Shown here one piece after another: positions 6,570-46,627 of a stretch of 61,180 nucleotides of DNA; the stretch's first letter is position 1, and each line of letters begins with the position of its first letter. Position numbers and translations under genes: made by a program. Origin of the DNA: Candidatus Limnocylindrales bacterium (GTDB lineage Bacteria > Chloroflexota > Limnocylindria > Limnocylindrales > CSP1-4); assembly GCA_036505555.1 (NCBI GenBank), contig DASXTH010000072.1:1-61180 (forward strand), in the 5' to 3' direction. The notes beneath the pieces were generated by a model, which was given only the letters and a program-made list of their open reading frames with translations, had not been told where the DNA came from and made no database searches.

Positions 6570-6589
6570 GTCCACTCGGATGGGGTCGG

Positions 6590-7531: not shown

Positions 7532-7705
7532 ATGCAGATCTCCCGTCGTGACGACGGGACCGCGCCGCATCTCGCGATCCGAGCCGTTTCCTCCACGAGC
7601 GCCGCATCTCGCCCGGTCTCAACCGCGTCAGGGTAACGCGGCCGGCGGCCGACGTGCCAGACGCGACCGCGACCCGCCGGTGCGCGCCGGCACCGTCCGG
7701 GCGAG

Positions 7706-8677
<972 letters not shown>

Positions 8678-8710
8678 TCATTCTAGGACGCGGGTGGGCT
8701 CGGGCCGGCG

Positions 8711-8757
8711 CCCGTCCACCCCGGGCTCGATCCCGTCCACCCGGGCTCGATCCCGCC
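8711..8757. repeat. Imperfect tandem duplication (21 nt + 20 nt + partial third unit) in the mdh upstream region
   Basis: CCCGTCCACCCCGGGCTCGAT (8711-8731) is followed by CCCGTCCACCCGGGCTCGAT (8732-8751) and then CCCGCC. The repeat is intergenic, about 80-125 nt upstream of the mdh start. Confidence 0.7.
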
Positions 8758-8945
8758 GTACCGCCTTCTACCAACGGGGGTGGTACGCGGTGCCTCCCGA
8801 TGCCCCGTTTCGCGCCGTTCACCAATCGGGGTAGTGGATGGCGCCAAAATCGGTCGGAATCGACCCCGATTCGGTCGGTCCCGGCCGGGTCCGGCTGCCA
8901 CATACCACCGCGGTTGCTATCTGGCGCCTCGCCGCGGGCCGAGCG

Positions 8946-10598
<1,653 letters not shown>

Positions 10599-10771
10599 CG
10601 GCTCGGACTCCTGCGCGCGGGCGATCGCTCCCGATCGACCGGCCGCGCGTAGCTCGCGGGCCCTCGGCGCCGATGGCGCCTTGACGAGCGAGGAAGTCGG
10701 CTTCCGCAGTCGCTGTTGGCCGGCATCGTACCGCAACCCGACCGCAACTTGTCCGCAACCCGATCGTCCTG

Positions 10772-11866: not shown

Positions 11867-11919
11867 GCCCGGAGCGTGCCGGGCGAGACCTGTCCGTTCG
11901 GTGACGACGCCCAGCCGGA

Positions 11920-26503: not shown

Positions 26504-26863
26504 TCAGCCGGCCTTCCGGAACTCGTCGACCCGCATCTCCTGGGTCCGACGAACCAGGTAGCGGACGACGACCCGCAGCTCGGCGTCGACGTCCTCGACC
26601 TGGACGTCCATCACCTGGATCAGGTCGCCGAGCCACTGCTGGAGGTTGCCCTGGACGGTGAGCTGGGTCGCCGCCGCGAGCGCGTCGTTGTTCGGCGCGA
26701 ACACCAGGCGGAGGAGGCCGCTTCCGAATGTCGGCCGGTTGACGCGCTCGCCGGGTGCCGTGAACAGGACCTGCTCGATCAGGTCGCGGATGTGATCAGC
26801 GTCGGACGTCGTCGCGGTCCGTCCGCGCCCATCGACGCGCAGGGGGAAGTCGACGTTCGTCAT
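26504..26863 (-). CDS. Baseplate wedge protein, GPW/gp25 family
   Basis: Internal ATG of ORF 26504..27052, with an ATGA overlap with the PAAR-like gene. DHIRDLIEQVLFTAPGERVNRPTFGSGL is the classic gp25 motif. Confidence 0.85.
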   Translation of the reverse strand: MTNVDFPLRVDGRGRTATTSDADHIRDLIEQVLFTAPGERVNRPTFGSGLLRLVFAPNNDALAAATQLTVQGNLQQWLGDLIQVMDVQVEDVDAELRVVVRYLVRRTQEMRVDEFRKAG

Positions 26864-27180
26864 GTCGCCGACACCCGCAGCTGGGTCACCAGGACCTGAA
26901 GAGGTGTGCCTGTGGGAACACAGATCGACGTCCCGCTCTGGACGACGACCGGTACGCCGCCGGCGAGCACCCGGGTCGCACCGACGACGAACTGGGCCGT
27001 CGCGCACGGCGGAGCGCTGGTCCCGGTCAAGGCGCAGCCGGCGATGACCCACGGCGACGTGAGCGTCACGACCGGCTGGCCGCCGAGGAGGACTCGCGGG
27101 TTGGGAGTCGTCGGCGTCGCCTGGCCGGCGTGAGCGCAGATGACGGTCGCCCCGAGCTGGACCGCGAAACCGGCCATCAC
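26860..27180 (-). CDS. PAAR-like spike-tip protein (DUF4280-type)
   Basis: 106 aa. Its pattern of conserved Cys and Gly residues (VICAHAGQ, RVLLGGQPV, AGC...PC, RVLAGGVPV, SICVP) is typical of PAAR-like cones. The start overlaps the gpV stop. Confidence 0.6.
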   Translation of the reverse strand: MMAGFAVQLGATVICAHAGQATPTTPNPRVLLGGQPVVTLTSPWVIAGCALTGTSAPPCATAQFVVGATRVLAGGVPVVVQSGTSICVPTGTPLQVLVTQLRVSAT

Positions 27181-27686
27181 ATCACGTCCAGGGCGCCGCT
27201 GTTGATGGAGACGCGGGGACCCTGAAGCTCGATCGTGCCGCCAAACCCGTTATCGATCTTCACGCCGATCGGGCTGAGGACCAGCTTCTGGCCGCTCGAC
27301 GTCTCCAGGGTGATGCCGCCGATCCCCGGTGTGTCGTCGAGGGTGATGCTCTGGCCGCCCCCGGTGACGATCATCAGCTTCTTGTATGGCGGGGCGATCA
27401 GGAGCGGCGGCATCTCCGCGACGGAGCCCCACCAACAGCCCGTCCAGATCGGGTAATCCGGGTTGCCATGCTCGAACTCGATCCAGATCCCGGCCCCCAC
27501 CGTCGGCAGGGCGAAGAACCCGGTCGAGCTGCCGCCGAACGGTGCGCACGGGAGCGCCCAGCCGCTCTCGTCGTCTCCAAGGACATCCTTGACCTTTGCC
27601 TTGACCCGGCCGGTCATCAGCGGGTCCTGGATGTCCGTGACGATCCCGCGGTACTTCCCGAAGAACGTCCCGCCGCCGGTGCTCAC
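27177..27686 (-). CDS. Baseplate spike, gpV / gp5 OB-fold family
   Basis: GTG start in a GTGA overlap with the gpD-like stop. GKYRGIVTDIQDPLMTGRVKAKV...SGWALPCAPFGG...PTVGAGIWIEFEHGNPDYPIWTG matches the Phage_base_V pattern. Confidence 0.8.
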   Translation of the reverse strand: MSTGGGTFFGKYRGIVTDIQDPLMTGRVKAKVKDVLGDDESGWALPCAPFGGSSTGFFALPTVGAGIWIEFEHGNPDYPIWTGCWWGSVAEMPPLLIAPPYKKLMIVTGGGQSITLDDTPGIGGITLETSSGQKLVLSPIGVKIDNGFGGTIELQGPRVSINSGALDVM

Positions 27687-29111: not shown

Positions 29112-29792
29112 CTACCCGCCGATGCTCATGCTCGCCGAGAACGAGGCCGAGCCGGAGAGGGCGCCACCGACCGCGGTCGCACCCGAGATCGTGGCCATGA
29201 CCTCCTTGATGACCTGGTGAGCGAGGAACAGCCCGCCCCCGATGCTCAGGAGTCCGAGGTCGTCGTAGGTCAGGACACGGAGGGACAGGTTGACCTTCGC
29301 CCGGATCGGGTTCAGCGCCGGATCGAAGGCCTCTTCGGTGATCGATAGCTGGGTCAGACGGACGGGGACCACGCGCTTCAGGCCCCAGACGAACAGGGTC
29401 AACGGCGCTTCAGGCGGGATGACCTCGATGATCCCGAGCGCGGCGAGCACCTCGTTGGCGATCACGAGCGCCGACTTCGGGTAGAGGAGCATCTCGAGCG
29501 ACGCGAGCGACGGAGCGACCCCGAACTGTCCCGTGATCGCGTCGCCGCGCTCCATCTGATCGGCGGCGTCGACCTCGACTTCGAGCGCGATCGTCTCCTC
29601 CGGCGGGCCTTTCAGCCGGAGCGCCTCCGACTGCGACCCGTCGCCTCCGCCGCCGCCGGCCGCCCGCGCCTGGACGGTCCGGGTCAGGGTGTCGGGGTTG
29701 TACTGGAAGATGACGACGCTGGCGAGCGGGTTCGCCGGATCAAGCCCGATGATCGCGCCCTTCAACAGCCGCGGCGAACCGGGAAACGTCAT
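29112..29792 (-). CDS. CIS tube-initiator-like protein (Afp7 N-terminal-domain type)
   Basis: 226 aa. VVIFQYNPDTLTR, APLTLFVWG and LNPIRAKVNLSLRVL match the pattern I recall for the contractile-injection-system tube/initiator family. Confidence 0.6.
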   Translation of the reverse strand: MTFPGSPRLLKGAIIGLDPANPLASVVIFQYNPDTLTRTVQARAAGGGGGDGSQSEALRLKGPPEETIALEVEVDAADQMERGDAITGQFGVAPSLASLEMLLYPKSALVIANEVLAALGIIEVIPPEAPLTLFVWGLKRVVPVRLTQLSITEEAFDPALNPIRAKVNLSLRVLTYDDLGLLSIGGGLFLAHQVIKEVMATISGATAVGGALSGSASFSASMSIGG

Positions 29793-29866
29793 GGGCGGAC
29801 CGTATGGGCGAGGCCGTCACCGACCCGTCACGCGCCCGTCACGGCGACGACGCGTCGTTGTCCTGC

Positions 29867-30193
29867 TCAGCCGGCCTGCGCGTCGATCGTCACTTCGAAC
29901 CGGTCGCCGACGGCGTCGCGCTCCCACGATCGGCGGTTGACGAACGTCAGCGCCGTCTCTCCGGGTCCGATCACCGCGATCCGGAAGCGCCGCGAGCCCG
30001 CTGCGCCGAGGCGCTCATGGTCCGGCCCAACGAACGTGCGGTCCCGCAGAGCCACGATCGAGTCGTCGAACGCCTCAAGGGCCCATCGGTAGCCCGAGGT
30101 CGGCGTCTCGTCGAGTGCGACGACGAGCTCGTCCCCGACGGTCACCGTCTGCAATGTGCCTGCCTCGGCCAGGCCGATCTCGATCTCCGCCAT
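29867..30193 (-). CDS. Chagasin-family (I42) cysteine-peptidase inhibitor, no signal peptide
   Basis: 108 aa. The three chagasin loop motifs are present: ETPTSGYRW (NPTTGYxW), LGAAGSRRFRI (GxGG) and NRRSWERD (RPW). Confidence 0.75.
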   Translation of the reverse strand: MAEIEIGLAEAGTLQTVTVGDELVVALDETPTSGYRWALEAFDDSIVALRDRTFVGPDHERLGAAGSRRFRIAVIGPGETALTFVNRRSWERDAVGDRFEVTIDAQAG

Positions 30194-30221
30194 CCCGTCC
30201 GGCCCTCGCTGCCTGTCGGGC

Positions 30222-31049
30222 TCAGTGTGGCAGCTCCGCGGCGCAGCATGCCTCGCCGGCGTTCGCCAGGAGGCTGGCGAAGTCGGAGCGCTTCATCCGG
30301 AAGCGGCCGTTCTGGCCCCAGCTGCCACCCCACGAGTTCTGGAAGACGTAGGTGTCGTCGGCGTCGACCTTCTCGAGCATGAGGTAGCAGTGGCCGCCGG
30401 CGACGCTGCCGGTCGGCTTCACGAGCCCGTTCGCGTCCGGATCGAACATGTCGTCCGTCCAGGCTGTCCCGACGACGACCGGCCCATGGTTGTTGATCCA
30501 GTCGTCGATCTCGTTCGTGTTCTGCGCGAACGCGAAGGCGGCGAGGCGGCCACGGTTACGGAGCGCGAGGGCGCCGGACCGGACATACGAACCGTTCTCC
30601 GCCAAGGGCTCCCCGTCGATCACCTTGCACTCGTAGTAGAGCGCGTGACCATCCGCGTTCTGGTAGTTGCCCTCGACCGGCATGGCGTCGACCCAGCCGG
30701 CCCAGCCGAAGCCAACGCAGTGGCCGGTCTGGCCCTGATCGAGCTGGATCTTCAACTCCCAGCCCGGCGTGGTGTCACCGGGCGGCATCGGCTGCGGCTT
30801 CCGCTTCTGCCGCTTCAGCCAGCGCCAGAAGACGAGGTAGTTGGGCCAGGTCGAGAAGTAGGGCGTCTGGTCGAGGACCTGCTCCACGGTCATCTGCAGC
30901 GTCGCCTCGCCCGGCTCGGCGAGCTCCATCAGCTTCGCGATCGACCAGTCGCGCGGGTCCGGCTTGTAGATCCGGCCGAGCAGGTGGCGGCCGAGCGTCA
31001 GCGCGGCGCTCCGCGGTGGCGGATCGATGGCGAGCTCACGGGGTTCCAT
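30222..31049 (-). CDS. Papain-like cysteine protease (C1 family), no signal peptide
   Basis: ATG with GAGGA upstream. Catalytic layout: DQGQTGHCVGFGW (Gln and Cys111), AGGHCYLMLE (His220), FQNSWGGSWGQNGRFRM (Asn238-Ser-Trp). Confidence 0.8.
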   Translation of the reverse strand: MEPRELAIDPPPRSAALTLGRHLLGRIYKPDPRDWSIAKLMELAEPGEATLQMTVEQVLDQTPYFSTWPNYLVFWRWLKRQKRKPQPMPPGDTTPGWELKIQLDQGQTGHCVGFGWAGWVDAMPVEGNYQNADGHALYYECKVIDGEPLAENGSYVRSGALALRNRGRLAAFAFAQNTNEIDDWINNHGPVVVGTAWTDDMFDPDANGLVKPTGSVAGGHCYLMLEKVDADDTYVFQNSWGGSWGQNGRFRMKRSDFASLLANAGEACCAAELPH

Positions 31050-31154: not shown

Positions 31155-32972
31155 TCAGAATCGCAGGCTGCCGACGCCAAGGACGGTGACTCGGCTGGCG
31201 TCCGTGCCGATGAGCGCCCTCCCTTCGACACCGAGCTCGAGCCGCTCCCATCGATACCCGGCTCCGACGGATCCAGAGAGTCCTCCCACGACCTCTGCCC
31301 CGGTGCCTGGCCCTCGGTCGGGCGCCGGTAGGGCGATGCCTACGAAGCCACCGGCTCGGACGTCCCCATAGAACCCGCGCAATGGTTGCTGGATGCGAAC
31401 GCCGATCTCACCCAGCGCAGCCGCCACGTGGCCGGCGGATGGTCCCCCTCCCGGCAGATACAGGAGGTGAGCTCCGAGGCCAGGGTTGATGACGACCATT
31501 TGGTCCGAGCGGAGCGCGATTCGAAGACCCAGGCCAATGGCCGCCCGCGTCGTGGCGGGCTCGAACGACGCTCCGCCGCGAAGTTCGAGACCGAGCCGAC
31601 TTCCGGACCTGGACTCGCCCGACTGCGCGGCGGTTGGGTCCACGACGGACGGCCCCGGCGGGAATGTCGCGCCCCGGACGGCCGCACAATCGAGTGTCCG
31701 GTTTTCTACCTGACCCTGTGCGGCATCGATCCCGAGCCCGAGCGCGGCATTGACGCGGGTGGCGAGGCCCGAGTGCGGTCCGCGGAGCCCGAGCCAGACC
31801 CATCGCTTGAACACCTGCCGGTGAATTGGGTGTGTCGCGATCACCGCACGGTGGTAGGCGGCGATCCGCGTAACACTTCGCTCCCTCACGGGATCGCTGA
31901 CCGTGGATCGCTCGAAATAGTCGTTCAAGGGGCCGAACTGGGACATGTGGTCGATGTAACACGCGTTGGTTCGGACCAGAACCGTGTACAGGCGATGGAA
32001 CTCGCGGACGAAGCTGCTGGTCCATGCGTCGACCTCAGACTCATCGCCTCGGAGACTGCTTCCGGTCTCGTACTGACGAACGTGGTCGACCTCATGATTG
32101 ACGGTGACCCGAGTCGCAAAGAAGTTGTCGGGTTCGAGTGCCGGCGGTCCCAGAACGACGTAGTTCTGGCTCCCATGGCGGAGGGTGTAGCCGGCATCGC
32201 GCGAAAGGGAACGGTGGTCCGATCCGGCGGCTCTCTTGGTGCCGAGTCCGTCGTCGTAGTTGATGACGTGCGAACTCACATCGAAGGCAACGAGGTGGGC
32301 GGCATCCGGATAGCGGTCGCCCTCGCTGGCGGTGGTGCGATCGACCACCCGCCATCCAATGGCCTCGTGCACGAGGGCTGCTCGATCCGCGGAGGTTGTT
32401 GCCGCCCCGACCCGAGCGGCCCAGTCGGCAGGGGCGCCGGTTGCTGCTGGTCCGACCCGTGAGTCGCGCTGGATCACCGGTGCGCGGTCACCGCTGTCGT
32501 CCGTCTGACCTTCTCGGGCCAGCCGCTCGGCCTCGTCGTCGGGAGGCCCGATGACATGCGACCATTGCCGTGCGCGCGCTTGTTGAGTGACGTGCGCAAG
32601 CTCGTGGCGGAGCAGGTCGCGTCCAGACCCGGCGTCGGCGTCGAACTGCGAGCGACCGAACACCACGTGATTCCCGACCGTGAAAGCCCGAGCCCCAAGT
32701 GATTCCGCGGCATTCGCCGCGGTCGAGTCAATATGAATTCGAACGCTTGCGAACTCGTGCCCGGCGGGCACGGGAGCCATCCCGCGGATCGAGCCAGGCA
32801 GGGGCATGCCAGGCTGGTCGAGCACTGACCTCACGGCCGGGTGAGTGCGCCGCGCCGCTGTCAGGCGATCGCCTGGGCTGAATCCGCCCGACTCCGCCGC
32901 GCGGGCAAGACTGCTCATCGGCGCTGACCCGTCGCCGCGATTCGCGCCGCCGACTGCGCGATAGCTCCACAT
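31155..32972 (-). CDS. DUF4157-type zincin protein with a second HExxH region and a C-terminal amphipathic beta-barrel-like domain
   Basis: FASVRIHIDSTAANAAESLGARAFTVGNHVVFG...LLRHELAHVTQQ matches the DUF4157 signature. A second motif NHEVDHVRQ lies at aa 292-300. The last ~150 aa form alternating hydrophobic strands ending in LRF. The start is ambiguous: ATG 32972 or ATG 32918. Confidence 0.75.
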   Translation of the reverse strand: MWSYRAVGGANRGDGSAPMSSLARAAESGGFSPGDRLTAARRTHPAVRSVLDQPGMPLPGSIRGMAPVPAGHEFASVRIHIDSTAANAAESLGARAFTVGNHVVFGRSQFDADAGSGRDLLRHELAHVTQQARARQWSHVIGPPDDEAERLAREGQTDDSGDRAPVIQRDSRVGPAATGAPADWAARVGAATTSADRAALVHEAIGWRVVDRTTASEGDRYPDAAHLVAFDVSSHVINYDDGLGTKRAAGSDHRSLSRDAGYTLRHGSQNYVVLGPPALEPDNFFATRVTVNHEVDHVRQYETGSSLRGDESEVDAWTSSFVREFHRLYTVLVRTNACYIDHMSQFGPLNDYFERSTVSDPVRERSVTRIAAYHRAVIATHPIHRQVFKRWVWLGLRGPHSGLATRVNAALGLGIDAAQGQVENRTLDCAAVRGATFPPGPSVVDPTAAQSGESRSGSRLGLELRGGASFEPATTRAAIGLGLRIALRSDQMVVINPGLGAHLLYLPGGGPSAGHVAAALGEIGVRIQQPLRGFYGDVRAGGFVGIALPAPDRGPGTGAEVVGGLSGSVGAGYRWERLELGVEGRALIGTDASRVTVLGVGSLRF

Positions 32973-32993
32973 ACGGGCGAGCGATCATCAGCC

Positions 32994-35078
32994 TCAGGCA
33001 TTGGCGTAGATGGTCGTGCACTGAGCATCCGTCAATGGCACGACCGCGCGGCCCGAGAAGGGGCTCATCAGGTTAGCCGCCGGGTGCGCGCCCGAGTTCA
33101 GCAAGGTGTGGCCGATCTCGTGGGCGAGGTCCTCGCGCGTGGTGACGTTGCGAAGGACGACCATCCCACGCAATGGCGCTGCTGGTCCAGTCGCGCAGAA
33201 GGCCGGAACCGAATAACCCCCCGCACCCGATCCGCTGAACGTCGCGGGATAGAAGGCCCGAATTGGGGCGGTCAGCCCGAACGTGGCCGTCGCTCCGTTG
33301 AAGAGCGCACGCTCCTCGGCCGTCGCCGCACCACAGCTGGGCGACGTAGCCAAGTCCGTGTTGCCACCGAGCCATGTCGTCGTCTGGGCGTTTGTCGCCG
33401 TGGCGTTCACACCGTGCCGAATTCCGACGTCGCACTGTTCGAGAATCGAGCTCGCGACCGCAACGTCGGCCGATGGCGTATGGGTGGATCCATCCAGTTT
33501 CACGGTATCAACCGTGACCGTCTTCCGGGGTTGGGCCCTGGCCGCGGCGGGGGGCACCAGGGCGACGGTGGCGGCGACAAGGCCGAGCATCAGATTCGCC
33601 CGCTGGAGGCTCGCAGTCTGGGCGGCCGATGGCGTGGCGGGCGCTGAACCCAGCGCCGTCCGCACAACGGCCAGGATGGCCGCGCCATCGCGCTGGACCG
33701 CGAGAAGCGTGATGTCGCGGTTCACCAAATTGTCCATGAACGCGAGCGCAACATCGAAGCCGTCCGGTCCGAGCTGCTGGAAGGCTGTCCGGACGAAGGG
33801 CAACTCGGCGACCGTATTGGTCAAGGCGCGAGCGGCCAGGTGGATCCCCCGAGCAAGCGCTGTCGGTTCGCGAACGAGGAACGCAGCTACGTCGGCTGCG
33901 AGGGTAGGAGGAGCCGCGCCGGTCGCGCTGGCACGCGTATCGAGGAGGGGGGCGAAGGCCGGATCGAATGCCGCGGCAAGGGCCTGGATTTGCTGGGGAT
34001 TCAGGGTCGCGATGCCGGTCAACTCCTCGATCTCGGCTGGTAGTGGGAAGCGCAATCCGGCCCGCCAGCGCGACATGTCTGGCAATCCCAGGTAGAACTG
34101 GTTGTAGACCATGAGAGCTTGGGCAAGCTCCAGCTCCGAGATGACCGCGAGCGGCTGCGGCACGCCGCCCGTCGGCGTGAACGGAGTGGCCGTCGTCCAG
34201 AGGGGAAGGAGTACTTGTGCGAGCATCCGAGGCGTCAGGTTCGCTCCGATGATCACGTCGAGGCGGCTCGAGCCGGTCGAGATCAGGCCGCCCTGGACGG
34301 TCACGGGGCCGACGCGAGTGTCGGTGACGTTGGTCGGAACGAACTGGATCCCCGTACGCGGCGTAGTGCCGAGCAGGCGGACGTAGCCTACGGCGGCCGG
34401 ATCGGCCCGCGCGACGAGCGTGCGCCCCGAAGCCCACGAATCGAACCGGGTATCGATCGGACCGGCTCGGTTCGATCGGGTGGCCTCGTTGCTGACTTCC
34501 TTGGCCTCGCGTTCGGCCGGACTGCTGGGATCGTCCAGCTCGGGCTCCGCCTCGGACGCGATGCGTCCACCTTGTTGGACGACATGCGTGAGCTCGTGGG
34601 CGATGAGCCGTCGGCCTCGTTCGGACGTTGGCTGGAACGCGCCCGCTCCGAAGACCACATCCCGGCCGCTCGTGTAGGCGATGGCGTGGATCGACGCAGC
34701 CGAGTGGGCCGCGGACGGCCCTTCGTGGATCCGAACCGCCGCGAAATCGTGTCCGAGCGCGCGCTCCATCGACGCTCGGATCCGCGGTTCGAGCGGGCGA
34801 CCATTTGAGTTGATCCCCTCCCGGACCGCTTGACCGAGGTGCGCGGGGGGCAGAGTCCCGGAGACGGGGCTGCGCTGAACACGGTCGGCGTTGTCGTGAT
34901 CGCAGGTTCCCGATGGGCAACGAATGGCGCCACAACCCTGCACGAGTGGACGAACCGCTCGAGCGGCCGGCCGGATCGTGATCGGTGGAACGGATCCAAG
35001 AGCACGCGACTCGGCGCGCGCGGGCCGGGAGTAGATCATGGGACCGCCGGCCTTGACGTCGGCAAACGTCTGGGTCAT
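32994..35078 (-). CDS. DUF4157-type zincin protein with a large uncharacterised middle region and a C-terminal second zincin motif
   Basis: DFAAVRIHEGPSAAHSAASIHAIAYTSGRDVVFG...RLIAHELTHVVQQ matches the DUF4157 signature. The C-terminus carries LAHEIGHTLLNSGAH...NLM. Start chosen at ATG 35078; ATG 35039 is also possible. Confidence 0.7.
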   Translation of the reverse strand: MTQTFADVKAGGPMIYSRPARAESRALGSVPPITIRPAARAVRPLVQGCGAIRCPSGTCDHDNADRVQRSPVSGTLPPAHLGQAVREGINSNGRPLEPRIRASMERALGHDFAAVRIHEGPSAAHSAASIHAIAYTSGRDVVFGAGAFQPTSERGRRLIAHELTHVVQQGGRIASEAEPELDDPSSPAEREAKEVSNEATRSNRAGPIDTRFDSWASGRTLVARADPAAVGYVRLLGTTPRTGIQFVPTNVTDTRVGPVTVQGGLISTGSSRLDVIIGANLTPRMLAQVLLPLWTTATPFTPTGGVPQPLAVISELELAQALMVYNQFYLGLPDMSRWRAGLRFPLPAEIEELTGIATLNPQQIQALAAAFDPAFAPLLDTRASATGAAPPTLAADVAAFLVREPTALARGIHLAARALTNTVAELPFVRTAFQQLGPDGFDVALAFMDNLVNRDITLLAVQRDGAAILAVVRTALGSAPATPSAAQTASLQRANLMLGLVAATVALVPPAAARAQPRKTVTVDTVKLDGSTHTPSADVAVASSILEQCDVGIRHGVNATATNAQTTTWLGGNTDLATSPSCGAATAEERALFNGATATFGLTAPIRAFYPATFSGSGAGGYSVPAFCATGPAAPLRGMVVLRNVTTREDLAHEIGHTLLNSGAHPAANLMSPFSGRAVVPLTDAQCTTIYANA

Positions 35079-35178
35079 CGGTCGCCCGTCGGCTTCCGAG
35101 CCGCCCAGGGGACGGCGTTCAGCTGGTACGCATCCCGTCGCGTGAACGGCTGGCTGGCGGCGCGGCACCGCCGCCGTT

Positions 35179-35198
35179 CGCATCTCTCCGCAGATGCG
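35179..35198. other. 7-bp palindromic hairpin in the 300-nt non-coding gap inside the cargo island
   Basis: CGCATCT (35179-35185) pairs with AGATGCG (35192-35198) across a 6-nt loop. It lies about 100 nt upstream of the 35078 start. Function is unknown. Confidence 0.3.
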
Positions 35199-35378
35199 GC
35201 CTCAACGGGAACGCTCAGCGAACGTGCGCGGAGGCTCGACGCAGGGGCGGGCGTGCGACCTTGAGCCGTTGTCCGCTGGATCGGCGTCATGCATGTCGTC
35301 ATCACTCGTCCCCGAGCCCGCGGCCGCGCAGTGCGGTGGCAACGGCCCTGCCGATCTCCGCGCCGAGCACCGACGTGC

Positions 35379-37844
35379 CTAGAGGTCCGGAAGGACATCG
35401 GTCAGGATGGCCTCGACCTGGCGGACGATGGCCTGTCGTTCCAGGTCCACTCGCTCACGATCGAGCCGCGTCTGCTGCGCGAGAATCGCAGCGGCAGGTG
35501 ACTGGTTCGGATTCGGTAGGCGGCGCGCGAGGAAGGGAACGTGGAGATGGCCGAAGTGAATCTTGGATCCCGCTTGGGTAGCCAGCAGTCCGACCCGATA
35601 GAAGATCTCGTTCGAGAGGTAGCTTCCTCCTGAACCCGCCACGGACGTCGAGCCCGGCGTGGGCCCCTTGAGCGAAGGGGTCACCTTCGACGACCCCGGA
35701 ACTCGCTCCATGATCTCCAGTTCGCCCCGCGTTGGAGCGGGCTTCTGCGGCCTCAACGTGCGGCGAGCCGACGGGGGGAGGGTCCCGCGGATGAACTCAG
35801 GTCCGGCTGGAAGGCCCGGGGCCGCTCCGGCCGTCGCGGGGGTCACGCCCGGGTTGTCTGGCGTCCCAGCGCCGCGGGTCCGGCCGGCCCACTCCTCGAC
35901 CTCGTAGGCAGGTCCGGCGTTCATGCTGATCGTCATGATCATGTCGGCGTGGCCCGGGCCTGACAGATACGCCGCGAACAGTTGCTCCACGATCCGCTCG
36001 TCGAAGGCCCGGAAGCTCACCGGAAAGACGACGCTTTCGACCGACCCCTTGATCGATCCGCTCGTCAGCTGACGACCATCCAGCGCGAGCGCCGCCGCAG
36101 CGGACGGATTGGTGGCCTCGGACAACCCGTAGTCACGCCGCTCGAAGCCGAACGGATCGAAGCCGCTGATGACAATCCGTTTCGTGCTGTTCGGGCCCGC
36201 GAATCGAGCCGCCAACATGCCGCGGGACGCTCGCTCGAGGAGCTGGTTCAGGTCGTCGCGCCGGGCTGCCGTCAGTCCGAATCGCGGCTGCCATTGGTCG
36301 AGGGTCCGGCGGAGCTGGACGCGAGCCCAGTAGAGAGGGCGGTCGTCAGTGCTGCCCGCGCGCGCGGCGGCGGTCGCCTGCGTCCACAGGCCGCGTCCGA
36401 CCGTCTCGACGGCCGTTCGCGCCGCTGCGAGGGACCGCGCCCGGTCGAGCGCGTTCGCGAGCCGCGGGATCGTCGATTCCAGGCCGGAGCGCGCGAGATA
36501 GGTCGAGCTCATGGATGGGACGTTGGCGGCGGCGGGACGCGACGGCTGCGATCGCGCTGCTTCCCGGCCGGGCGGCACGCCAGCGAAGCCGCATCGCGGG
36601 ATCGGCAGGATCGTCCCGCTTCGACCGGCGGCCAGCTCCTGTGGGGTAAGCCTCCGGCCATACGCCTGGCGGAACGCCTCGAGTTCCTCGGCACGCGCTC
36701 GAACGCGCGCCGGATCGGGGCGCTCACCGTCGAGAGGCGCATACGTCGCCGTGACGTAGTCGCTCTGCCACTCGCGGGTGAGATCCGGATCGTTGCAGTC
36801 GGGTCGAGCGAACCCGCGGACCTCGACGTGGGTCTGTCCTCGGGGCCTGGCGCCACAGAAGATTCGCCGTGCCGTCTCCCTCGGCAGGCGGACGCAGCCA
36901 TGGGACAGCGGAGCGCCGGTCACGGTGGTGTGTTGGTGAAGGGCCATCCCTCGGAACCCCAGGAATGTGTTCCAGAACTCCCACGTGTTGTGCGTACGCT
37001 CCGTATCAGTGATCGTGTAGGTGGAGCCGATCGCCGTCGCATTGCTTCCATCGCGCCGCGATTCGGCGACGGAGGCGGTCGTGCCCGGCGGCCCGCCGCC
37101 TACGACGCAGCAGTGCCCCTTGCCCGTCGAAGCGACCGACGACGAGACCGTCCTGTCGCTCCAGTGGAGCGTCACGGATTGCGGTCTTTCCTGATCGACG
37201 ACGATCTTCCTCAGCCACGGATCGCGGTCGGCTGCCGCGCAATCCGGTGAGTTCGCGGCCTCCCAAGTTCGCCGGAGGCGTCCGGCCGGTTCGGCCGACA
37301 CCGCGGTCAGAGACCCTTGGGCGACCCGCTCCGCTTCGAGCTCGTCATTGTCCTCAGGGCGGCTCATCGACAGTGCTCCGCCGGCTGGGGCGTGGCCGGC
37401 CTGCTGGACGACGTGGGCCAACTCATGCGCAAGAAGGCGTTGGCCATCGGGCGTGCCAGGCTGGAATCGTCCCCAGCTGAAGACGACGTGCGAACCAACG
37501 GTGTAGGCCCGGGCGGCCACGTCCCTCGCCGATGCCGCAGCCCCGGCGTCCGTATGGATCCGGACGTGATCGAACCGATGACCGATGCGCGCCTCCATTT
37601 GAGACCGGATCCCGCGATCGAGCCTGTTTCCCGGCGTAGCCAGCGTCGCACCGACGGAGGGCGGGATCGTCGCCGGACCCAGTCCGGTTCGAAACCGGTC
37701 GAGACGCCCATCCGGCTGGCCGCAGCCGCCGGCCGGACACGGATGATCCCCGCAGCGCTGGAGACGACGACCGGAGATGAGCCGCACGGGGCTCGTGCGA
37801 ATGCCCGCCGTGGAGATGCGCGGGGCGCATGCGGCCGAGGTCAT
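35379..37844 (-). CDS. Three-module protein: DUF4157 zincin + YkuD-type L,D-transpeptidase-like domain + pyroglutamyl-peptidase (C15)-like domain
   Basis: ATG at residue 26 of ORF 35379..37919, in an ATGA overlap with the upstream gene. HRFDHVRIHTDAGAAASARDVAARAYTVGSHVVF...LLAHELAHVVQQ matches the DUF4157 signature. ALHQHTTVTGAPLSHGCVRLP matches the YkuD signature. KRIVISGFDPFG...NPS...YEVEEWA...GGSYLSNEIFY...GHLHVP fits a C15-like layout. Confidence 0.75.
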   Translation of the reverse strand: MTSAACAPRISTAGIRTSPVRLISGRRLQRCGDHPCPAGGCGQPDGRLDRFRTGLGPATIPPSVGATLATPGNRLDRGIRSQMEARIGHRFDHVRIHTDAGAAASARDVAARAYTVGSHVVFSWGRFQPGTPDGQRLLAHELAHVVQQAGHAPAGGALSMSRPEDNDELEAERVAQGSLTAVSAEPAGRLRRTWEAANSPDCAAADRDPWLRKIVVDQERPQSVTLHWSDRTVSSSVASTGKGHCCVVGGGPPGTTASVAESRRDGSNATAIGSTYTITDTERTHNTWEFWNTFLGFRGMALHQHTTVTGAPLSHGCVRLPRETARRIFCGARPRGQTHVEVRGFARPDCNDPDLTREWQSDYVTATYAPLDGERPDPARVRARAEELEAFRQAYGRRLTPQELAAGRSGTILPIPRCGFAGVPPGREAARSQPSRPAAANVPSMSSTYLARSGLESTIPRLANALDRARSLAAARTAVETVGRGLWTQATAAARAGSTDDRPLYWARVQLRRTLDQWQPRFGLTAARRDDLNQLLERASRGMLAARFAGPNSTKRIVISGFDPFGFERRDYGLSEATNPSAAAALALDGRQLTSGSIKGSVESVVFPVSFRAFDERIVEQLFAAYLSGPGHADMIMTISMNAGPAYEVEEWAGRTRGAGTPDNPGVTPATAGAAPGLPAGPEFIRGTLPPSARRTLRPQKPAPTRGELEIMERVPGSSKVTPSLKGPTPGSTSVAGSGGSYLSNEIFYRVGLLATQAGSKIHFGHLHVPFLARRLPNPNQSPAAAILAQQTRLDRERVDLERQAIVRQVEAILTDVLPDL

Positions 37845-38650
37845 GACGAAGCCGCGCATTCGATGAAGTGCGCCCACGCGTCGACGTTCTTCGACTGATC
37901 CCCGCGGAGGTTGTCGCACGGGTCGTGACAGTCCACGCGCGGGGTGCAGTAGTTCTCATCGCCGGTGACGGAGGAGTCGATGCCAGCGGCATGGCCGGCC
38001 TCGTGGATGAGCGTTCGCCGCATCTGGCCCGCCGAGGTTGCGAAGATCCGCGGGCACAGCACCATCGTCGAGAGATCGTCCGTGACGCGCGCCGCGACCT
38101 CCGGATCACGGCATGGCGCATCGCCACACCCGGCAACTTCGATCGGAACGGAGTCGAGTTTCTGTCGGATGGAGGCGACGCGCGAAGATGCACGCCCGGC
38201 ATCGATGTTCGTGTGAAAGACCCGGGTCGCGACGGTGTCCAGATAGCGATCACCGCGGCCCAGGGCCTGGTACGCCCGCGACGTCGTACTCCGAGCTGCC
38301 CATCGGACAGCGTTCATCCGCTGCGACTCCTGCGGCGTGAACGGCCTGCGGGTCGGAGACGAATCGACGTCCTGGCCCACGCACAGCAGCTCGCGGAGCG
38401 CCTGTCGGGTCGGATCCGTCGGAGGTGGCTCCTCATCGGGGCCGCCCTCCGCCAGCCTCGCGCGGAGGGGCGACGCGATCGAGAAGTGCCGCAGGACGTG
38501 GTTCGCCCCGCGGCACGGTCGATGGATGCCCTCCGCCGTCTCAGCCGGGGCCGGAACCGCCAGCAAGGCCAGTCGTCCGCCCCGCGCCGGCCCTAGCGCC
38601 CGTGGCAGACGTGGTGCCCTGGTCATCGGCGCCATGCAGGCCGTCATCAC
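37841..38650 (-). CDS. Aspzincin (M35-like) metallopeptidase-domain protein
   Basis: RRTLIHEAGHAAGIDSSVTGDENYC aligns with HExxH followed by the aspzincin GTxDxxYG motif at its T, D and Y positions. The start is GTG 38650 (GTGA overlap) or ATG 38647. Confidence 0.6.
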   Translation of the reverse strand: MMTACMAPMTRAPRLPRALGPARGGRLALLAVPAPAETAEGIHRPCRGANHVLRHFSIASPLRARLAEGGPDEEPPPTDPTRQALRELLCVGQDVDSSPTRRPFTPQESQRMNAVRWAARSTTSRAYQALGRGDRYLDTVATRVFHTNIDAGRASSRVASIRQKLDSVPIEVAGCGDAPCRDPEVAARVTDDLSTMVLCPRIFATSAGQMRRTLIHEAGHAAGIDSSVTGDENYCTPRVDCHDPCDNLRGDQSKNVDAWAHFIECAASS

Positions 38651-38967
38651 AGGAGGCCCTCGGCGGCGCGCCGCACCGCAGCGTCGACGGCGCCGGCGAT
38701 CCCGGTGCCGACCATCGAGGAATGTTGGGCGCCAGAACCGAGGTCCAGGCGCGTGCGGACAGCGTCCAGCGCCACACCGGCTGGCGGGGCGGCGTTGCCA
38801 AACGTCGCGAGCCTCGCTCGCAGCTCCGTCTCCACGGCCCGACCGACGACGTGGCCGTCGACCGTACCCAGGCCGTTGAGGACCAGCCGGTCGATCTCGA
38901 CCGATACGACCGTGGGGTGACGCCCGGGGACACCACGGCGCCTATCGCGACGGCCGATCAGGCCCAC
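38647..38967 (-). CDS. Small conserved-looking hypothetical protein (106 aa) linking the ATPase gene to the cargo genes
   Basis: GTG start with GGAGG 6 nt upstream, overlapping the ATPase 3' end by 10 nt. Its stop overlaps the next start. The frame is GC3-rich and carries no known motif. Confidence 0.5.
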   Translation of the reverse strand: MGLIGRRDRRRGVPGRHPTVVSVEIDRLVLNGLGTVDGHVVGRAVETELRARLATFGNAAPPAGVALDAVRTRLDLGSGAQHSSMVGTGIAGAVDAAVRRAAEGLL

Positions 38968-40949
38968 CCCGCCACCTCCGTCTCGGTCAGCGTCCGCTCC
39001 AGCTTCGCGTACTCCGTTCGGGTCGCGCGGAGCAGATGGGCCATGCCGATCGGCCGGCCGGCCTCGGCGGCCAGGAACGCGGCGTTCACCGCGATGTTCC
39101 GGATGTTGCCGCCGGCGACGTTGAGCCGCGCGAGTCGTGCCGCTTCCACGCCGTCCGTGGGCGCAGCCGGCGGGAACGCTCGCCGCCAGATCTCCGCCCG
39201 CGCCGCCTCGTCCGGGAACGGGAAGTGAACCGTGAAGCGGATCCGCCGGAGGAACGCCGGGTCGATGCTCTCCTTCAGGTTCGTCGTGAGGATCGCGAGG
39301 CCACGGTAGGCCTCCATGCGCTGCAGCAGGTAGCCGACTTCAATGTTCGCGTAGCGGTCGTGGCTGTCCTTGACCTCGCTGCGCCTGCCGAAGAGCGCGT
39401 CGGCCTCGTCGAAGAGCAGGATCGCCCCGCCGTCCTCCGCGGCGTCGAAGACCCGGCGCAGGTTCTTCTCGGTCTCGCCGATGTACTTGCTGACCACCTG
39501 ACTCAGGTCGATCCGGTACAGGTCGAGGCGGAGCTCGGTCGCGAGGACCTCGGCCGCGAGCGTCTTGCCGGTCCCGCTCGCGCCGACGAACAGCGCGGCG
39601 ATCCCGAGACCCCTGGCGCTCGTCGCGCCAAACCCCCAGCGGTCGTACACGAGCGTCCGGTGACGGACCTGGAGGGCCAGCTCGCGGAGGGTCTCGAGAT
39701 GGCCGACGGGCAGGACCAAATCCGACCAGCCCGCTCGAGCGTCCACACGCTGGGCCAGATCGTCCATGCGCGGCCGCGCCTGGCCACGGCACGCGTCCCA
39801 CAGCGCGCGGCCCAGGGCCGTCGGATCGGCGCCGCCCACCTCCCCCGCGGCCGCGACCTCGGCCAAGGCTTCGACGCTCGCCTCCCGGATCCCGCGGATC
39901 CCGAGGTCGAACTGCGAGGCGAGGCGATCGCCCTGGCCGTCGAGCCGATCGGGGCCGACCAGCGACTGCCACACCTCGAGCTGCTCGCCGCTGGTCGGCT
40001 TTGCCACGTCAAGCGCGAGCATCGGGCGTGCGCGCGTCGGTCGGCGATCGCGGATCAGGAGGATCAGGGCCGACGACAGTCCCTCGACGACTTGGGAGAT
40101 GGCGGCATCGCGAGCCGAGTCGTGACCCTCGACGCCGTCGCAGTCCAGGATGAGGGCGGTTCCAGCGAGCGCAGCCTCCCGTTCGCAGAGGCGGACGAGG
40201 GCGTCCAGCTCGCGGGGTTCGACGGGCAGGGACTCGGCCCGGACGATGGCCAGGCGCATCCCGAGCAGGATCGCGGCGACCTCCGCGACGAGGCGCTTGC
40301 TCGAGCCGTCCGGTCCGCACAGCTCGATGACCGGCGGCGGTTCTCCGGGCGGCCGATCCGTCCAGGCATGGACGATGCGGTGGGCGAGCTGCTCGTGGGA
40401 GGGCACGACGTCGAGCTCGGACGCACGTTGGGACAGCGGCTCGAGGTACCCGGCCAGGCGGTCGTCGACCGCGTCGATCCCGACGAGGTGATGGAGCACG
40501 CGCTCGTCGATCCGCAGCGCGCTTGTCGCGAGCGGCCCGGCCGCGGGCTCGACGAGCCGCCAGCGGCGCAGCGGCGCATTCGGCGCGAGCGCGCTCCAGT
40601 GGGCATCGGGCAGCGCCGCCAGGGCGAGGCTGAAGGTCGCGTGGGCCCGGCCCGGATCGCCCTGGGCCCGAGCGCACAACTCGCCAACGGACGCGTCGAG
40701 CTCGACACCGGCGCACAGAACCAGCACGTCGCGCTCGAAGGCCGACAGACCGAAGGCCGCGACGACCTGGTCGAGCGCGGCGGGGCGATCGGAGAGCGCC
40801 GGGTCCGCCGCCACATCGGTTCGCGGGACGTCCGGCCCTGCCGAACCCCCGGACGCGTGGCGCTCAACCGCCGACCGGACCCCGCCGAGGGCCGCCTCGA
40901 GGCGCGCCTTGTTGGCCGCCGTCCACGCGTCGGCCTCGACGCCGATCAT
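38958..40949 (-). CDS. AAA+ ATPase of the eCIS Afp15 type
   Basis: 663 aa with a long N-terminal region and a single C-terminal AAA module. Walker A is GASGTGKTLAAEVLA and Walker B is ILLFDEADALFG. The SRH-like region is ILTTNLKESIDPAFLRRIRF. ATGA overlap with the DUF4255 gene. Confidence 0.9.
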   Translation of the reverse strand: MIGVEADAWTAANKARLEAALGGVRSAVERHASGGSAGPDVPRTDVAADPALSDRPAALDQVVAAFGLSAFERDVLVLCAGVELDASVGELCARAQGDPGRAHATFSLALAALPDAHWSALAPNAPLRRWRLVEPAAGPLATSALRIDERVLHHLVGIDAVDDRLAGYLEPLSQRASELDVVPSHEQLAHRIVHAWTDRPPGEPPPVIELCGPDGSSKRLVAEVAAILLGMRLAIVRAESLPVEPRELDALVRLCEREAALAGTALILDCDGVEGHDSARDAAISQVVEGLSSALILLIRDRRPTRARPMLALDVAKPTSGEQLEVWQSLVGPDRLDGQGDRLASQFDLGIRGIREASVEALAEVAAAGEVGGADPTALGRALWDACRGQARPRMDDLAQRVDARAGWSDLVLPVGHLETLRELALQVRHRTLVYDRWGFGATSARGLGIAALFVGASGTGKTLAAEVLATELRLDLYRIDLSQVVSKYIGETEKNLRRVFDAAEDGGAILLFDEADALFGRRSEVKDSHDRYANIEVGYLLQRMEAYRGLAILTTNLKESIDPAFLRRIRFTVHFPFPDEAARAEIWRRAFPPAAPTDGVEAARLARLNVAGGNIRNIAVNAAFLAAEAGRPIGMAHLLRATRTEYAKLERTLTETEVAGWA

Positions 40950-42175
40950 GGGACAGTGACAAGCGGATCCGTGATCACACCCGCTCCGTTCCGCACGAGG
41001 ACGCTGTCGGCTTGGTCGACGACCACCTGAACGGCGTGGCTCCCGGCCGCAACCCCGGCCATCGGGAACGACAGGCTCGTCGTGTCGCCGGATCGAGGCG
41101 GCCCGCTGATCACGTGTCGCCGCTGACCGGTCGCGGGGTCGAGGAGCAGGACATCGACGCGTTGGGACGCCGAGACCGTGACATCCGTCGTCGCGGTGAG
41201 GACCGGTCCGGCCGCCACCGCGACTGCGGCGATCGTCGGATGGAGAGCGAAGGTCGCGACGTTCGACTCGACTCCGTCGTGCTCGATGGGAGGAATGCCC
41301 AACAACGTCCGATGGACGACCTGGACGGTGGCCATCCCCGCCCGAAGCTCGGCAATCGGGACGGTCCCAAGGTCGAAGGGGATCCGGGCGTTCGTCCCGG
41401 CGGCGATCGGTCGATCGGACCCCGCGAGCCGGACGCGGGTCACGTCGCCGACCAATTCGCTCCCGAGGATGTCGATCGTGGTCGTTGCCGTGATCGGGGC
41501 CCTCGGATCGGGCGATGCCACGACCGCGGCGATGAGCGGGCGGCCCAGCCGCACCACGTGGACGTCGCGCTCGAGGACGGGCAACGGCGTCACCGTCGCC
41601 ACGTCCGGCTCGACGAGGACGACCGACGCCTGGTAGGCGACGGACAGCGCGTATGGGGTCTGGAAGAACACCGACCAGAGCTTGGACAGCTCCTCGAGGT
41701 TCATCGGCAGCGGGACGAACTTCACCCGCTCAACCTGATCGCCGAGGTCGGTTGCGGCCAGCGACGGGTGGACAGGCGGGCTGGCCGTCGCGGCGGTCTT
41801 GACGGCGGCGATCAGCTGGGGCGTCAGGAACGGCTGGGCGTGGAGCGTCCGGACCACGCTGCCGAGAAGCCGCTGCGGTTCGAGCTCCTCGTCGGCGCCA
41901 CTGAACGTGAACAGGTAATGCAGATCCAGCGCCGCCACCGGCCGCTGGAGGAGATCGCCTCCCGACGATCGGGTCGGGAGATCGGCGTTCCGCAGTGCCA
42001 CGTTCGGAACGACCTGATAGAGGTAGACGTTCACCGTCGGGGAGGACGTCCCGTTCGTCGAGGTCTCGGGTCGGTCGGTCGTCACGGTGGCGCCCGGGAC
42101 ATCGGCCCCGGCGGTCGCCTGAAGCAATCGATGGAGCGCGGCGGTGACCGTTGCCACGGCGAGGAAATTGCTCAT
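40946..42175 (-). CDS. DUF4255 (Pvc16/Afp16-like) tail terminator/cap protein with C-terminal Ig-like extension
   Basis: MSNFLAVATVTAALHRLLQ...VNVYLYQVVPNVALRNADLP is the characteristic DUF4255 N-terminus. ATGA overlap with the upstream gene. Confidence 0.8.
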   Translation of the reverse strand: MSNFLAVATVTAALHRLLQATAGADVPGATVTTDRPETSTNGTSSPTVNVYLYQVVPNVALRNADLPTRSSGGDLLQRPVAALDLHYLFTFSGADEELEPQRLLGSVVRTLHAQPFLTPQLIAAVKTAATASPPVHPSLAATDLGDQVERVKFVPLPMNLEELSKLWSVFFQTPYALSVAYQASVVLVEPDVATVTPLPVLERDVHVVRLGRPLIAAVVASPDPRAPITATTTIDILGSELVGDVTRVRLAGSDRPIAAGTNARIPFDLGTVPIAELRAGMATVQVVHRTLLGIPPIEHDGVESNVATFALHPTIAAVAVAAGPVLTATTDVTVSASQRVDVLLLDPATGQRRHVISGPPRSGDTTSLSFPMAGVAAGSHAVQVVVDQADSVLVRNGAGVITDPLVTVP

Positions 42176-44055: not shown

Positions 44056-44574
44056 CTAGGCGAACTGCGTTTCCAGCGGCTCGTCGACGCCCTCGTCGCG
44101 CTCGAAGCCCTCGTTCTCGAGCTTGATGTGCTGGATCGCAACGGCGTTCGCGTTCGCGTCGAGATCCGGCAACGCCTGGTACTCGGAGACCCAGCACCGG
44201 AAGACGTTGTACGCGATCACCTGTTGACCGGCCTCGTTGTAGACCTCGATCCTGATGTCCTTGCGGAAATCCAGGAGCGAGACCTCGCTGCCCAGGCCCG
44301 CCTGGAAGTTCCAGACCTTCCGCGCCCACGCCTCGAAGTCGAGGTCGTGGGTCACGCCACGCTCGAGGGTGATTGCCTCGTACTCGGTTCGGCCCGGGCT
44401 CTTCCGGCTGGTGCTCGGGTCGCCGCCCTCGCGATGCTTGACGACCTCGGTCGTCCGTTTCAGGCCTCCCACCTTGCTGACGCCGGCGACGGGCTTGCCG
44501 TCCCACCAGACTCGGAACTTGAAATTCTTGTACGGGTCGAAACGGGTCAGGGCATTGACCGTGAACTGCGCCAT
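44056..44574 (-). CDS. Contractile tail tube protein (T4 gp19-like / Afp1-type)
   Basis: 172 aa. FDPYKNFKFRVWWDGKPVAGVSKVGGLKRTTEVVKHREGGDPSTSRKSPGRTEYEAITLERGV matches the gp19 tube family pattern. Confidence 0.9.
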   Translation of the reverse strand: MAQFTVNALTRFDPYKNFKFRVWWDGKPVAGVSKVGGLKRTTEVVKHREGGDPSTSRKSPGRTEYEAITLERGVTHDLDFEAWARKVWNFQAGLGSEVSLLDFRKDIRIEVYNEAGQQVIAYNVFRCWVSEYQALPDLDANANAVAIQHIKLENEGFERDEGVDEPLETQFA

Positions 44575-46513: not shown

Positions 46514-46627
46514 GCCGTCCTCCTGACGGCGCCCGCTCTGGCACCGTCTGCTTCGGCGGAAGGGTGGTCGACGATCCGTCACTGGACCATCACCGGCATG
46601 TCACCGCGATGCGCGTGCGGCCGCCCG

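Follow-up and report, generated by a model that had tools for sequence, protein, structure and literature searches.

A predicted membrane β-barrel module at the C-terminus of a putative DUF4157 cargo protein from an extracellular contractile injection system

The DUF4157 domain marks toxins of extracellular contractile injection systems (eCIS) (PMC8213781). In AlgoCIS the disordered N-terminal domain of the cargo is the loading signal, while loading requires neither DUF4157 nor the C-terminal domain, and an AAA+ protein was proposed to unfold the cargo so that it can enter the lumen of the tube (bioRxiv 10.64898/2026.05.27.728243). For a DUF4157 cargo from a different contractile injection system (CIS), toxicity to E. 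coli was seen only when it carried a periplasmic tag (PMC12210884). Here we analysed a stretch of 61,180 nucleotides (nt) from Candidatus Limnocylindrales bacterium (contig DASXTH010000072.1; the window), which carries a complete eCIS on its minus strand. Our subject is one gene of this locus, which encodes a protein of 605 amino acids (aa) with a DUF4157 domain, a zincin-like middle domain and a C-terminal module that is predicted to form an eight-stranded β-barrel (Table 1). We favour the reading, at a probability of about 0.5, that this is a modular eCIS effector whose barrel goes into a target-cell membrane, where it tethers a protease.

The window protein shares several features with the described DUF4157 cargo (AlgoCIS Cgo1 and Cgo2, and the EAT toxins of Geller et al. 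2021), namely a disordered N-terminus, a DUF4157 domain with HExxH and a variable C-terminal effector part, as well as a gene in an eCIS operon next to an AAA+ ATPase, with several DUF4157 genes in tandem. It differs in that its variable part is bipartite, with a zincin-like domain followed by the barrel. No membrane β-barrel on a DUF4157 cargo is described in the titles and abstracts that we found, full text covering only a few papers. The assignment to this class can be tested on three points, and the protein has a Pfam match, an HExxH motif and a place in an eCIS locus; we consider it likely that it is eCIS cargo. The match to eCIS_core, the present name of DUF4157, reaches 89.8 bits against a cut-off of 22 and covers model positions 1–78 of 79. 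The HELAH motif, which an earlier sequence-only reading of the window had attributed to a DUF4157 module, lies inside this match, at the place where the aligned homologues read HELxHVxQQ. The domain order is identical across 24 homologues of the window protein, and because of this conserved order we take the minus-strand frame to be the gene; the plus-strand open reading frames (ORFs) that overlap it are a usual by-product of a G+C content of 68–70%.

To model the C-terminal module we used AlphaFold2 on a 40-sequence alignment of the module alone, which gave eight strands of 12–16 residues with a mean predicted local distance difference test score (pLDDT) of 91.7 and a predicted template-modelling score (pTM) of 0.82. 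The model of the full-length protein also has eight long strands, at aa 459–603. When the module model was compared with the PDB by Foldseek, the best 50 matches were all outer-membrane or designed transmembrane β-barrels, without a single soluble fold among them. They include OmpA (E = 1.9e-6), Ail (E = 4.6e-6), OmpX (E = 9.6e-6), OprF, NspA, OmpW, PagL, PagP and designed transmembrane barrels, and the template-modelling (TM) scores to OmpX, Ail, OmpA and OprF are 0.58–0.73 over about 150 aligned columns, the value for OprF being 0.73. The full-length model retrieved the same list of barrels from the PDB, and the matches in the viral library (BFVD) are phage-encoded outer-membrane barrels. 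The sequence-only reading had seen in this segment the pattern of a small OmpA/OmpX-like outer-membrane barrel, which is borne out by the prediction of a closed eight-stranded barrel and by PDB matches that are all of this kind. A soluble β-sandwich, which the same reading had named as the outcome that would speak against it, was not what AlphaFold2 returned. We regard a membrane-barrel fold as very likely for the module.

The sequence of the module points in the same direction. Over the last 147 residues the period-2 hydrophobic moment amounts to 1.19, compared with 0.77 ± 0.11 for shuffled sequences (z = 3.9), and since none of 2000 composition-preserving shuffles reached the observed value, the alternation is not an effect of composition. 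All eight alternating hydrophobic stretches listed in the sequence-only reading were found, at aa 460–605 (nt 31158–31595), and the protein does end in an aromatic residue, a Phe. Along the strands, alternate positions are hydrophobic yet variable, exchanging L, I, V, F, A and W. The 14 near-invariant strand positions are all Gly, Pro or charged (including G467, R526, D537, G564, R574, E579 and G581), and they comprise none of the 43 hydrophobic positions but 14 of the 65 others (Fisher p = 7e-4). A variable hydrophobic exterior around an invariant interior of Gly, Arg, Asp and Glu is the inside-out signature typical of membrane barrels. Both termini lie on one rim, and aromatic residues are concentrated there (positions 460, 495, 535, 573, 575 and 605); 28 of the 40 members have F or W as their exact C-terminal residue. 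Homologues without periodicity and terminal aromatic residue had been the other outcome expected to tell against a barrel, and those examined keep the periodicity and mostly the aromatic end. The strands are connected by 2, 8, 8, 4, 11, 2 and 3 residues, short on both rims, as in a minimal barrel.

These data also bear on the possibility that the module is a soluble eight-stranded up-and-down barrel of the lipocalin or avidin type, or an oligomerisation domain, and that its likeness to outer-membrane proteins is an artefact of prediction on an alternating sequence. The evidence for the fold consists of predictions, pLDDT is 50–84 when the alignment is shallower, the loops are short on both sides and the known outer-membrane protein families show no homology, all of which would suit a soluble domain. 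However, a more diverse alignment raises pLDDT to 91.7, no soluble barrel is among the module model's 50 best PDB matches, and the strands are 12–16 residues long. In addition, the conserved face is made of Gly and charged residues and the variable face of aliphatic and aromatic ones, whereas a soluble barrel, with its hydrophobic core, would show the opposite arrangement. We consider a soluble domain very unlikely.

Among membrane barrels, the closest described structures are the small outer-membrane proteins (OmpX/Ail/Lom, the N-terminal domains of OmpA and OprF, NspA, PagL and OmpW), with which the module shares the predicted fold of eight antiparallel, all-next-neighbour strands, together with the dyad hydrophobicity, the charged interior network, the aromatic rim and the C-terminal Phe. 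In contrast to these proteins, the module has no signal peptide, is made in the cytoplasm and is fused C-terminally to enzymes; it has no detectable sequence homology to them, its loops are short on both rims, the Gly of its β-signal is out of register, and it is partly encoded in lineages thought to lack an outer membrane. No Pfam match was obtained for the window module at E ≤ 10, the 40 members gave only four isolated single-member Pfam matches (best E = 0.047), and the module profile matched no PDB sequence at E ≤ 10. By these differences and searches, the module falls outside the described outer-membrane protein families.

The layout of the window protein also recalls type Va autotransporters (NalP, Hbp and EspP), in which an N-terminal enzyme 'passenger' and a linker precede a C-terminal barrel that ends in an aromatic residue, and the module has weak Foldseek matches to the barrels of Hbp and AIDA-I. 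Autotransporters are characterised by a Sec signal peptide, a barrel of 12 strands whose pore holds a helix, and export of the passenger across their own outer membrane, whereas the window protein has eight strands, no helix before the barrel, no signal peptide and a presumed delivery by a contractile tail. We rejected membership in the type Va class, as the defining signal peptide, 12 strands and internal helix are absent. A further parallel is found in outer-membrane proteins that act on host cells (Neisseria PorB and chlamydial OmpA) and in the membrane-localisation domains of injected toxins, where, as proposed here, a module sets which membrane is occupied in the foreign cell. PorB and chlamydial OmpA are, however, secreted outer-membrane proteins of the ordinary kind, carried to the host by vesicles, while in the present case a putatively injected enzyme has the barrel as a dedicated domain at its C-terminus.

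Several observations weigh against a barrel that is installed in a target membrane. All statements on the fold, including the closure of the barrel and its hydrophobic belt, are predictions; natural outer-membrane proteins have long external loops (PMC13067283), unlike the short ones on both rims of the module; and no sequence homology was found to known outer-membrane protein families, in Pfam (including the MBB clan) or among PDB chains. Overall entropy does not differ significantly between hydrophobic and other strand positions (Mann-Whitney p = 0.11). Twelve of the 40 members do not end on an aromatic residue, nine of them having a tail of 1–8 residues after the aromatic and three having no aromatic near the end. 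The β-signal of the β-barrel assembly machinery (BAM), defined as GxxPhixPhi (PMC13067283), is matched strictly in 0/40 members, with Gly at −4 and −6 and not at −5, and position −2 is hydrophobic but aromatic only in a minority; as the strict pattern is matched by no member, we do not claim a canonical BAM signal. Moreover, the window locus probably comes from a monoderm lineage, and the candidate sites of delivery comprise the periplasm, the cytoplasm, a eukaryotic cell and the interior of the producer, as for some actinobacterial CIS.

The middle domain, which precedes the barrel, was modelled with pLDDT > 90 at aa ~180–440 in the full-length AlphaFold2 prediction. The sequence-only reading had placed a second motif, NHEVDHVRQ, at nt 32082–32096; HEVDH occupies exactly this interval, and the longer string slightly exceeds it. 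Across 24 homologues H293, E294 and H297 are invariant, and so are R299, Q300, E313, D315, W317 and T318. HEVDH is on a predicted helix (286–302), E313, D315, W317 and T318 are on the next one (309–327), and two β-hairpins precede both, an order of predicted secondary structure as expected of a putative zincin; the invariant E313 and D315 are candidates for the third zinc ligand. Against Pfam the domain gave a single weak match (Ependymin, E = 0.24), and a profile search of PDB sequences gave none; for the whole protein neither NCBIfam nor phmmer against the PDB returned a match. Its fold has no match in the top 50 of the PDB or BFVD, searched via the full-length model, for which all listed matches are to the barrel. 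We do not assign it to the aspzincins: hhalign against the Aspzincin_M35-type middle domains of other barrel-bearing proteins gave only a non-significant match around HExxH (probability 1.5%). By contrast, the core of the middle domain aligns by hhalign to the DUF4157 core (P = 4.6e-4) over 39 columns that include a strand and HExxHVxQ, the two cores reading GYT..YIVLG..(10)..NHEfDHVRQ and AYT.G..IVFG..(10)..AHELxHVxQQ, respectively. The second HExxH may thus belong to a diverged and enlarged copy of the DUF4157 zincin core that arose by internal duplication. The middle domain, larger than the DUF4157 module, is the probable catalytic warhead, with a putative protease activity.

To determine how widely the module occurs, we scored its profile against 1.84 billion representative proteins. 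About 50 clusters match, 40 proteins have E < 1e-10, and the module is at the extreme C-terminus in every case. Among 30 further representatives, eCIS_core was found in 24, most of the others being N-terminally truncated fragments; an Aspzincin_M35 middle domain is present in 12 and a Tlde1/YkuD domain in one, and a second HExxH is found in 22, in at least five sequence types. The domains in front of the module are therefore varied, comprising the window type, Aspzincin_M35, at least three other HExxH types and some that are not zincins. Conversely, of 23 proteins homologous in the middle domain, 16 keep the C-terminal segment (17 counting the window protein), and six stop just before the module. 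Because of these varied middle domains and of the homologues that lack it, the module appears in the alignments as an independent, mobile and optional C-terminal domain of eCIS cargo. As far as the profile searches reach, the barrel module and the zincin-like middle domain are two undescribed domain families.

A scan of loci in one genome per species, with a closer module alignment, found the module in three metagenome-assembled genomes (MAGs), from Chloroflexia, Armatimonadota and Acidobacteriota, in each case in an eCIS locus. In the Chloroflexia and Armatimonadota genomes (loci L001 and L002) the barrel gene directly follows Pvc16_N and the AAA ATPase, and in the Acidobacteriota genome (L003) two barrel-bearing DUF4157-aspzincin genes stand in tandem after DUF6519. 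The producers of the module thus include lineages with an outer membrane and others probably without one.

Some relatives deserve separate mention. One protein (P0066, 774 aa) has an N-terminal L,D-transpeptidase of the Tlde1/YkuD type, DUF4157, a HEAAH zincin and the barrel, that is, three putative enzymatic modules plus the barrel. In L003 (8657–13883, plus strand) a 531-aa protein is encoded after the tandem genes; its match to the OmpA-family peptidoglycan-binding domain (PF00691) is weak, under the Pfam cut-off. We looked for standalone secreted relatives of the barrel among the 50 profile matches, but the short ones look like contig-end fragments of DUF4157 proteins, and a further candidate (P0062) was discarded as a repeat-protein artefact.

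The modularity has to be weighed together with the interior of the barrel when asking whether the barrel is itself the toxin, either as a pore-forming or membrane-perturbing element or as a decoy that clogs BAM through its C-terminal strand, with the zincins as accessories. The module is joined to many middle domains, some of them not zincins, which suggests a function independent of the middle domain; eight-stranded barrels of the OmpA type have small conductances, and BAM is inhibited by mimics of the β-signal (PMC13067283). On the other hand, the predicted lumen is filled with the invariant residues R526, D537, R574 and E579 and with Q528, like the closed salt-bridge cores of OmpA and OmpX, and the strict β-signal is not matched. 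The middle-domain homologues without a barrel further indicate that the middle domain is the common warhead and the barrel an optional add-on. We judge a toxic barrel unlikely and favour an anchor over a pore; that the module is a membrane anchor in the target has, in our estimate, close to an even chance.

The window protein has no signal peptide, its most hydrophobic stretch of 10 aa in the first 70 residues averaging 0.53 on the Kyte-Doolittle scale. None of 36 full-length module-bearing members has a signal-peptide-like N-terminus (maximum 10-aa mean 1.69, same scale and region), and no helical transmembrane segment was found in the window protein. The absence of a signal peptide noted in the sequence-only reading therefore holds for the protein and its relatives, and the location in an injection-system locus was confirmed by the structural eCIS genes around it. 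Without a signal peptide the barrel is not expected to serve the envelope of the producer. This producer is a Chloroflexota bacterium, as follows from the malate dehydrogenase of the window, which is 90–91% identical to sequences of Candidatus Limnocylindrales and Chloroflexota. Chloroflexota share the outer-membrane gene pattern of monoderms and are increasingly seen as monoderm, although this is debated (PMC8871954; bioRxiv 10.1101/2025.08.19.671072). The producer lineage is thus probably monoderm, and the monoderm-like gene pattern of the phylum speaks against a use of the barrel in an outer membrane of the producer itself.

A role inside the producer or the particle would nevertheless have precedents. 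The module could serve to dock the cargo inside the tube or cap, attach a cytoplasmic CIS to the producer's membrane, or assist a lysis of the producer that releases the particles. According to the titles and abstracts consulted, some CIS (Streptomyces, Anabaena) work within the producing cell or are anchored in a membrane; Geller et al. raise the possibility that certain toxins contribute to producer lysis; and in L001 and L002 the barrel gene comes directly after the ATPase gene. However, the C-terminal cargo domain is dispensable for AlgoCIS loading (bioRxiv 10.64898/2026.05.27.728243), the module occurs rarely, as an option, among cargo that is identical in other respects, a hydrophilic tube lumen offers no evident partner for its lipid-facing surface, and insertion of a β-barrel into the cytoplasmic membrane from inside is not known. 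Such a role is, in our view, distinctly improbable.

Returning to an effector with a membrane anchor, we propose the following sequence of events. The protein would be synthesised in the cytoplasm without an export signal, and the AAA+ ATPase of the locus would hold it unfolded and thread the chain into the tube lumen, which could cover the barrel's lipid-facing surface in the way that periplasmic chaperones protect outer-membrane proteins. Storage in an unfolded state would fit a barrel of this kind, since a lipid-facing barrel cannot fold productively in the cytoplasm. The N-terminal aa 1–56 are a candidate loading signal by likeness to AlgoCIS cargo; pLDDT is 26–35 over aa 1–30 in the full-length model. 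Firing would expel the protein into the envelope of a target bacterium, where the C-terminal module would fold into a membrane, the likeliest being a diderm's outer membrane, which it would enter from the periplasm on its own or with the help of the target's BAM machinery. We favour a diderm outer membrane because a sister cargo with a YkuD domain and the Tlde1-bearing relative point to bacterial envelopes. As insertion would take place from the periplasmic side, both termini and the tethered zincin would be located in the periplasm, with a tether of about 18 residues holding the protease at the periplasmic face. This linker (aa 441–458) varies in length and sequence across the homologue alignment, and the full-length model shows a further linker between the DUF4157 module and the middle domain. 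Unfolded loading, periplasmic delivery, membrane insertion, the anchor role and the protease activity are all inferred steps.

A more specific form of this proposal seems to us possible but doubtful: the signal-less barrel would be stored unfolded and then installed from within by the victim's own machinery, BAM in a diderm or the mitochondrial machinery for sorting and assembly (SAM), planting the protease permanently on the inner face of the membrane. The mitochondrial target can also be considered by itself, as injection into the cytosol of a eukaryote, insertion into the mitochondrial outer membrane by SAM and the translocase of the outer membrane (TOM), and placement of the protease on mitochondria. 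Bacterial outer-membrane barrels present in the eukaryotic cytosol are imported by mitochondria (PMC12757748, PMC3430219), most characterised eCIS act on eukaryotes (PMC8213781), and the mitochondrial signal tolerates residues past the last hydrophobic position, which fits the nine members with a tail of 1–8 residues. Bacterial envelopes are instead suggested by the YkuD sister cargo and the Tlde1 relative; as with the BAM signal, the module's Gly does not fall in register with the Po-x-G-x-x-Hy-x-Hy signal, and the protein has no eukaryote-specific domain. We find a eukaryotic target quite unlikely.

With its predicted outer-membrane-barrel fold, the module would be the first membrane-targeting domain defined for DUF4157 eCIS effectors, and a transferable one; the warheads that it follows are of at least six kinds, and its producers belong to three phyla. 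It represents a new protein family of about 50 clusters without a counterpart in Pfam, NCBIfam or the PDB, and the zincin-like middle domain a second one, without a structural match in the top-50 listings searched via the full-length model. If the proposed anchoring is correct, at least some eCIS would be involved in envelope-level warfare on diderm bacteria, and the module would be a natural β-barrel membrane protein that is made in a cytoplasm and kept competent for insertion without the Sec/SurA/Skp route; it would also offer a compact tag of about 150 residues to anchor engineered eCIS payloads at target membranes. Installation by BAM or SAM, if true, would amount to a new principle of effector targeting, in which a toxin hijacks membrane-protein biogenesis, and to the first natural trans-cellular insertion of an outer-membrane protein by an injection device.

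Table 1. Coordinates of the barrel-bearing gene, its parts and the associated eCIS genes (window positions unless stated otherwise)
Feature	Position (nt)	Strand	Basis or remark
Whole coding sequence, putative eCIS cargo/effector protein	31155..32972	−	605 aa plus stop
N-terminal region, aa 1–56	32805..32972	−	predicted disordered; candidate loading sequence for tube packing
DUF4157/eCIS_core, aa 57–134	32571..32804	−	Pfam PF13699, E = 1.3e-25; HELAH at aa 123–127 (nt 32592–32606)
Middle domain, aa 172–440, putative zincin metallopeptidase of an undescribed family	31653..32459	−	HEVDH at aa 293–297 (nt 32082–32096)
Invariant E313-x-D315-A-W-T motif of the middle domain	32019–32036	−	alignment of homologues
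Flexible Pro/Ser/Gly/Ala-rich linker, aa 441–458	31599..31652	−	pLDDT ~41, without secondary structure
C-terminal module, predicted eight-stranded barrel, aa 459–605	31158..31598	−	AlphaFold2 and Foldseek
Predicted barrel strands 1–4, aa 459–471, 474–486, 495–506, 515–528		−	AlphaFold2 on module alignment
Predicted barrel strands 5–8, aa 533–548, 560–575, 578–589, 593–604		−	AlphaFold2 on module alignment
Phe605 codon, last residue	31158–31160	−	
Two further DUF4157 cargo genes	32994–35183 and 35379–37919	−	Pfam, NCBIfam
Sheath	44594–46582	−	
gp19 tube	44056–44574	−	
Pvc16_N	40946–42175	−	
AAA+ ATPase (WHD and AAA domains), likely cargo unfoldase/loader	38958..40949	−	Pfam; role by likeness to bioRxiv 10.64898/2026.05.27.728243
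Tube-like protein	29112–29792	−	
Spike OB domain	27177–27686	−	
gp25	26504–27052	−	
Two baseplate-J proteins; DUF6519 protein of 1442 aa	eCIS locus	−	
Tandem barrel genes of the Acidobacteriota MAG (positions in L003)	8657–10465 and ~10466–12283	+	

Translation of the 605-aa protein may start at Met19 instead of Met1, as its nearest homologue (P0003) begins around residues 14–19 of the window protein. The gene is the last of three tandem DUF4157 genes between the AAA+ ATPase and the second tube gene, and each of the three cargo proteins has at least two HExxH motifs. The protein encoded by the gene at 32994–35183 has 729 aa and an extra HExxH near its C-terminus, within LAHEIGHTLLNSGAHP; Pfam yields only eCIS_core and a weak M78 match for it. 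The gene at 35379–37919 encodes the YkuD sister cargo, a protein of 846 aa with a YkuD L,D-transpeptidase domain at aa 238–354 and a region similar to pyroglutamyl-peptidase C15 at aa 759–801. By its domains it is a candidate peptidoglycan-directed effector, which argues for bacterial targets. A 269-aa ORF at 37841–38650 (minus strand), with a weak Aspzincin_M35 match (E = 1.2e-4, under the Pfam cut-off) and without DUF4157, overlaps the annotated start of this gene by about 80 nt; it would be a small zincin gene in its own right, the alternative being that the 846-aa gene starts further downstream.

The G+C content at the third codon position is 0.74–0.78 in the three DUF4157 cargo genes (31155–37919) and 0.87–0.93 in the flanking genes (29112–31049 and 38958–40949), which comprise eCIS structural genes, a C1 peptidase and a chagasin-like gene. 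From these values the cargo block looks compositionally foreign, as would an exchanged or recently gained cassette. The C1 peptidase is of the papain family (30222–31049, minus strand) and is followed by the inhibitor of the chagasin family (I42; 29867–30193, minus strand), both of them after the cargo genes and inside the eCIS operon, and together they look like a pair of the toxin/immunity type. A C1 peptidase gene also directly follows the barrel gene in the Chloroflexia MAG (L001, 10561–11430). Just outside the eCIS locus, at 609–7570 on the minus strand, two large subtilases (S8 and PA domains; 848 and 1143 aa) and a trypsin-like protein are encoded, and these genes adjoin housekeeping genes (malate dehydrogenase and phosphoenolpyruvate carboxykinase) in a protease-rich neighbourhood.

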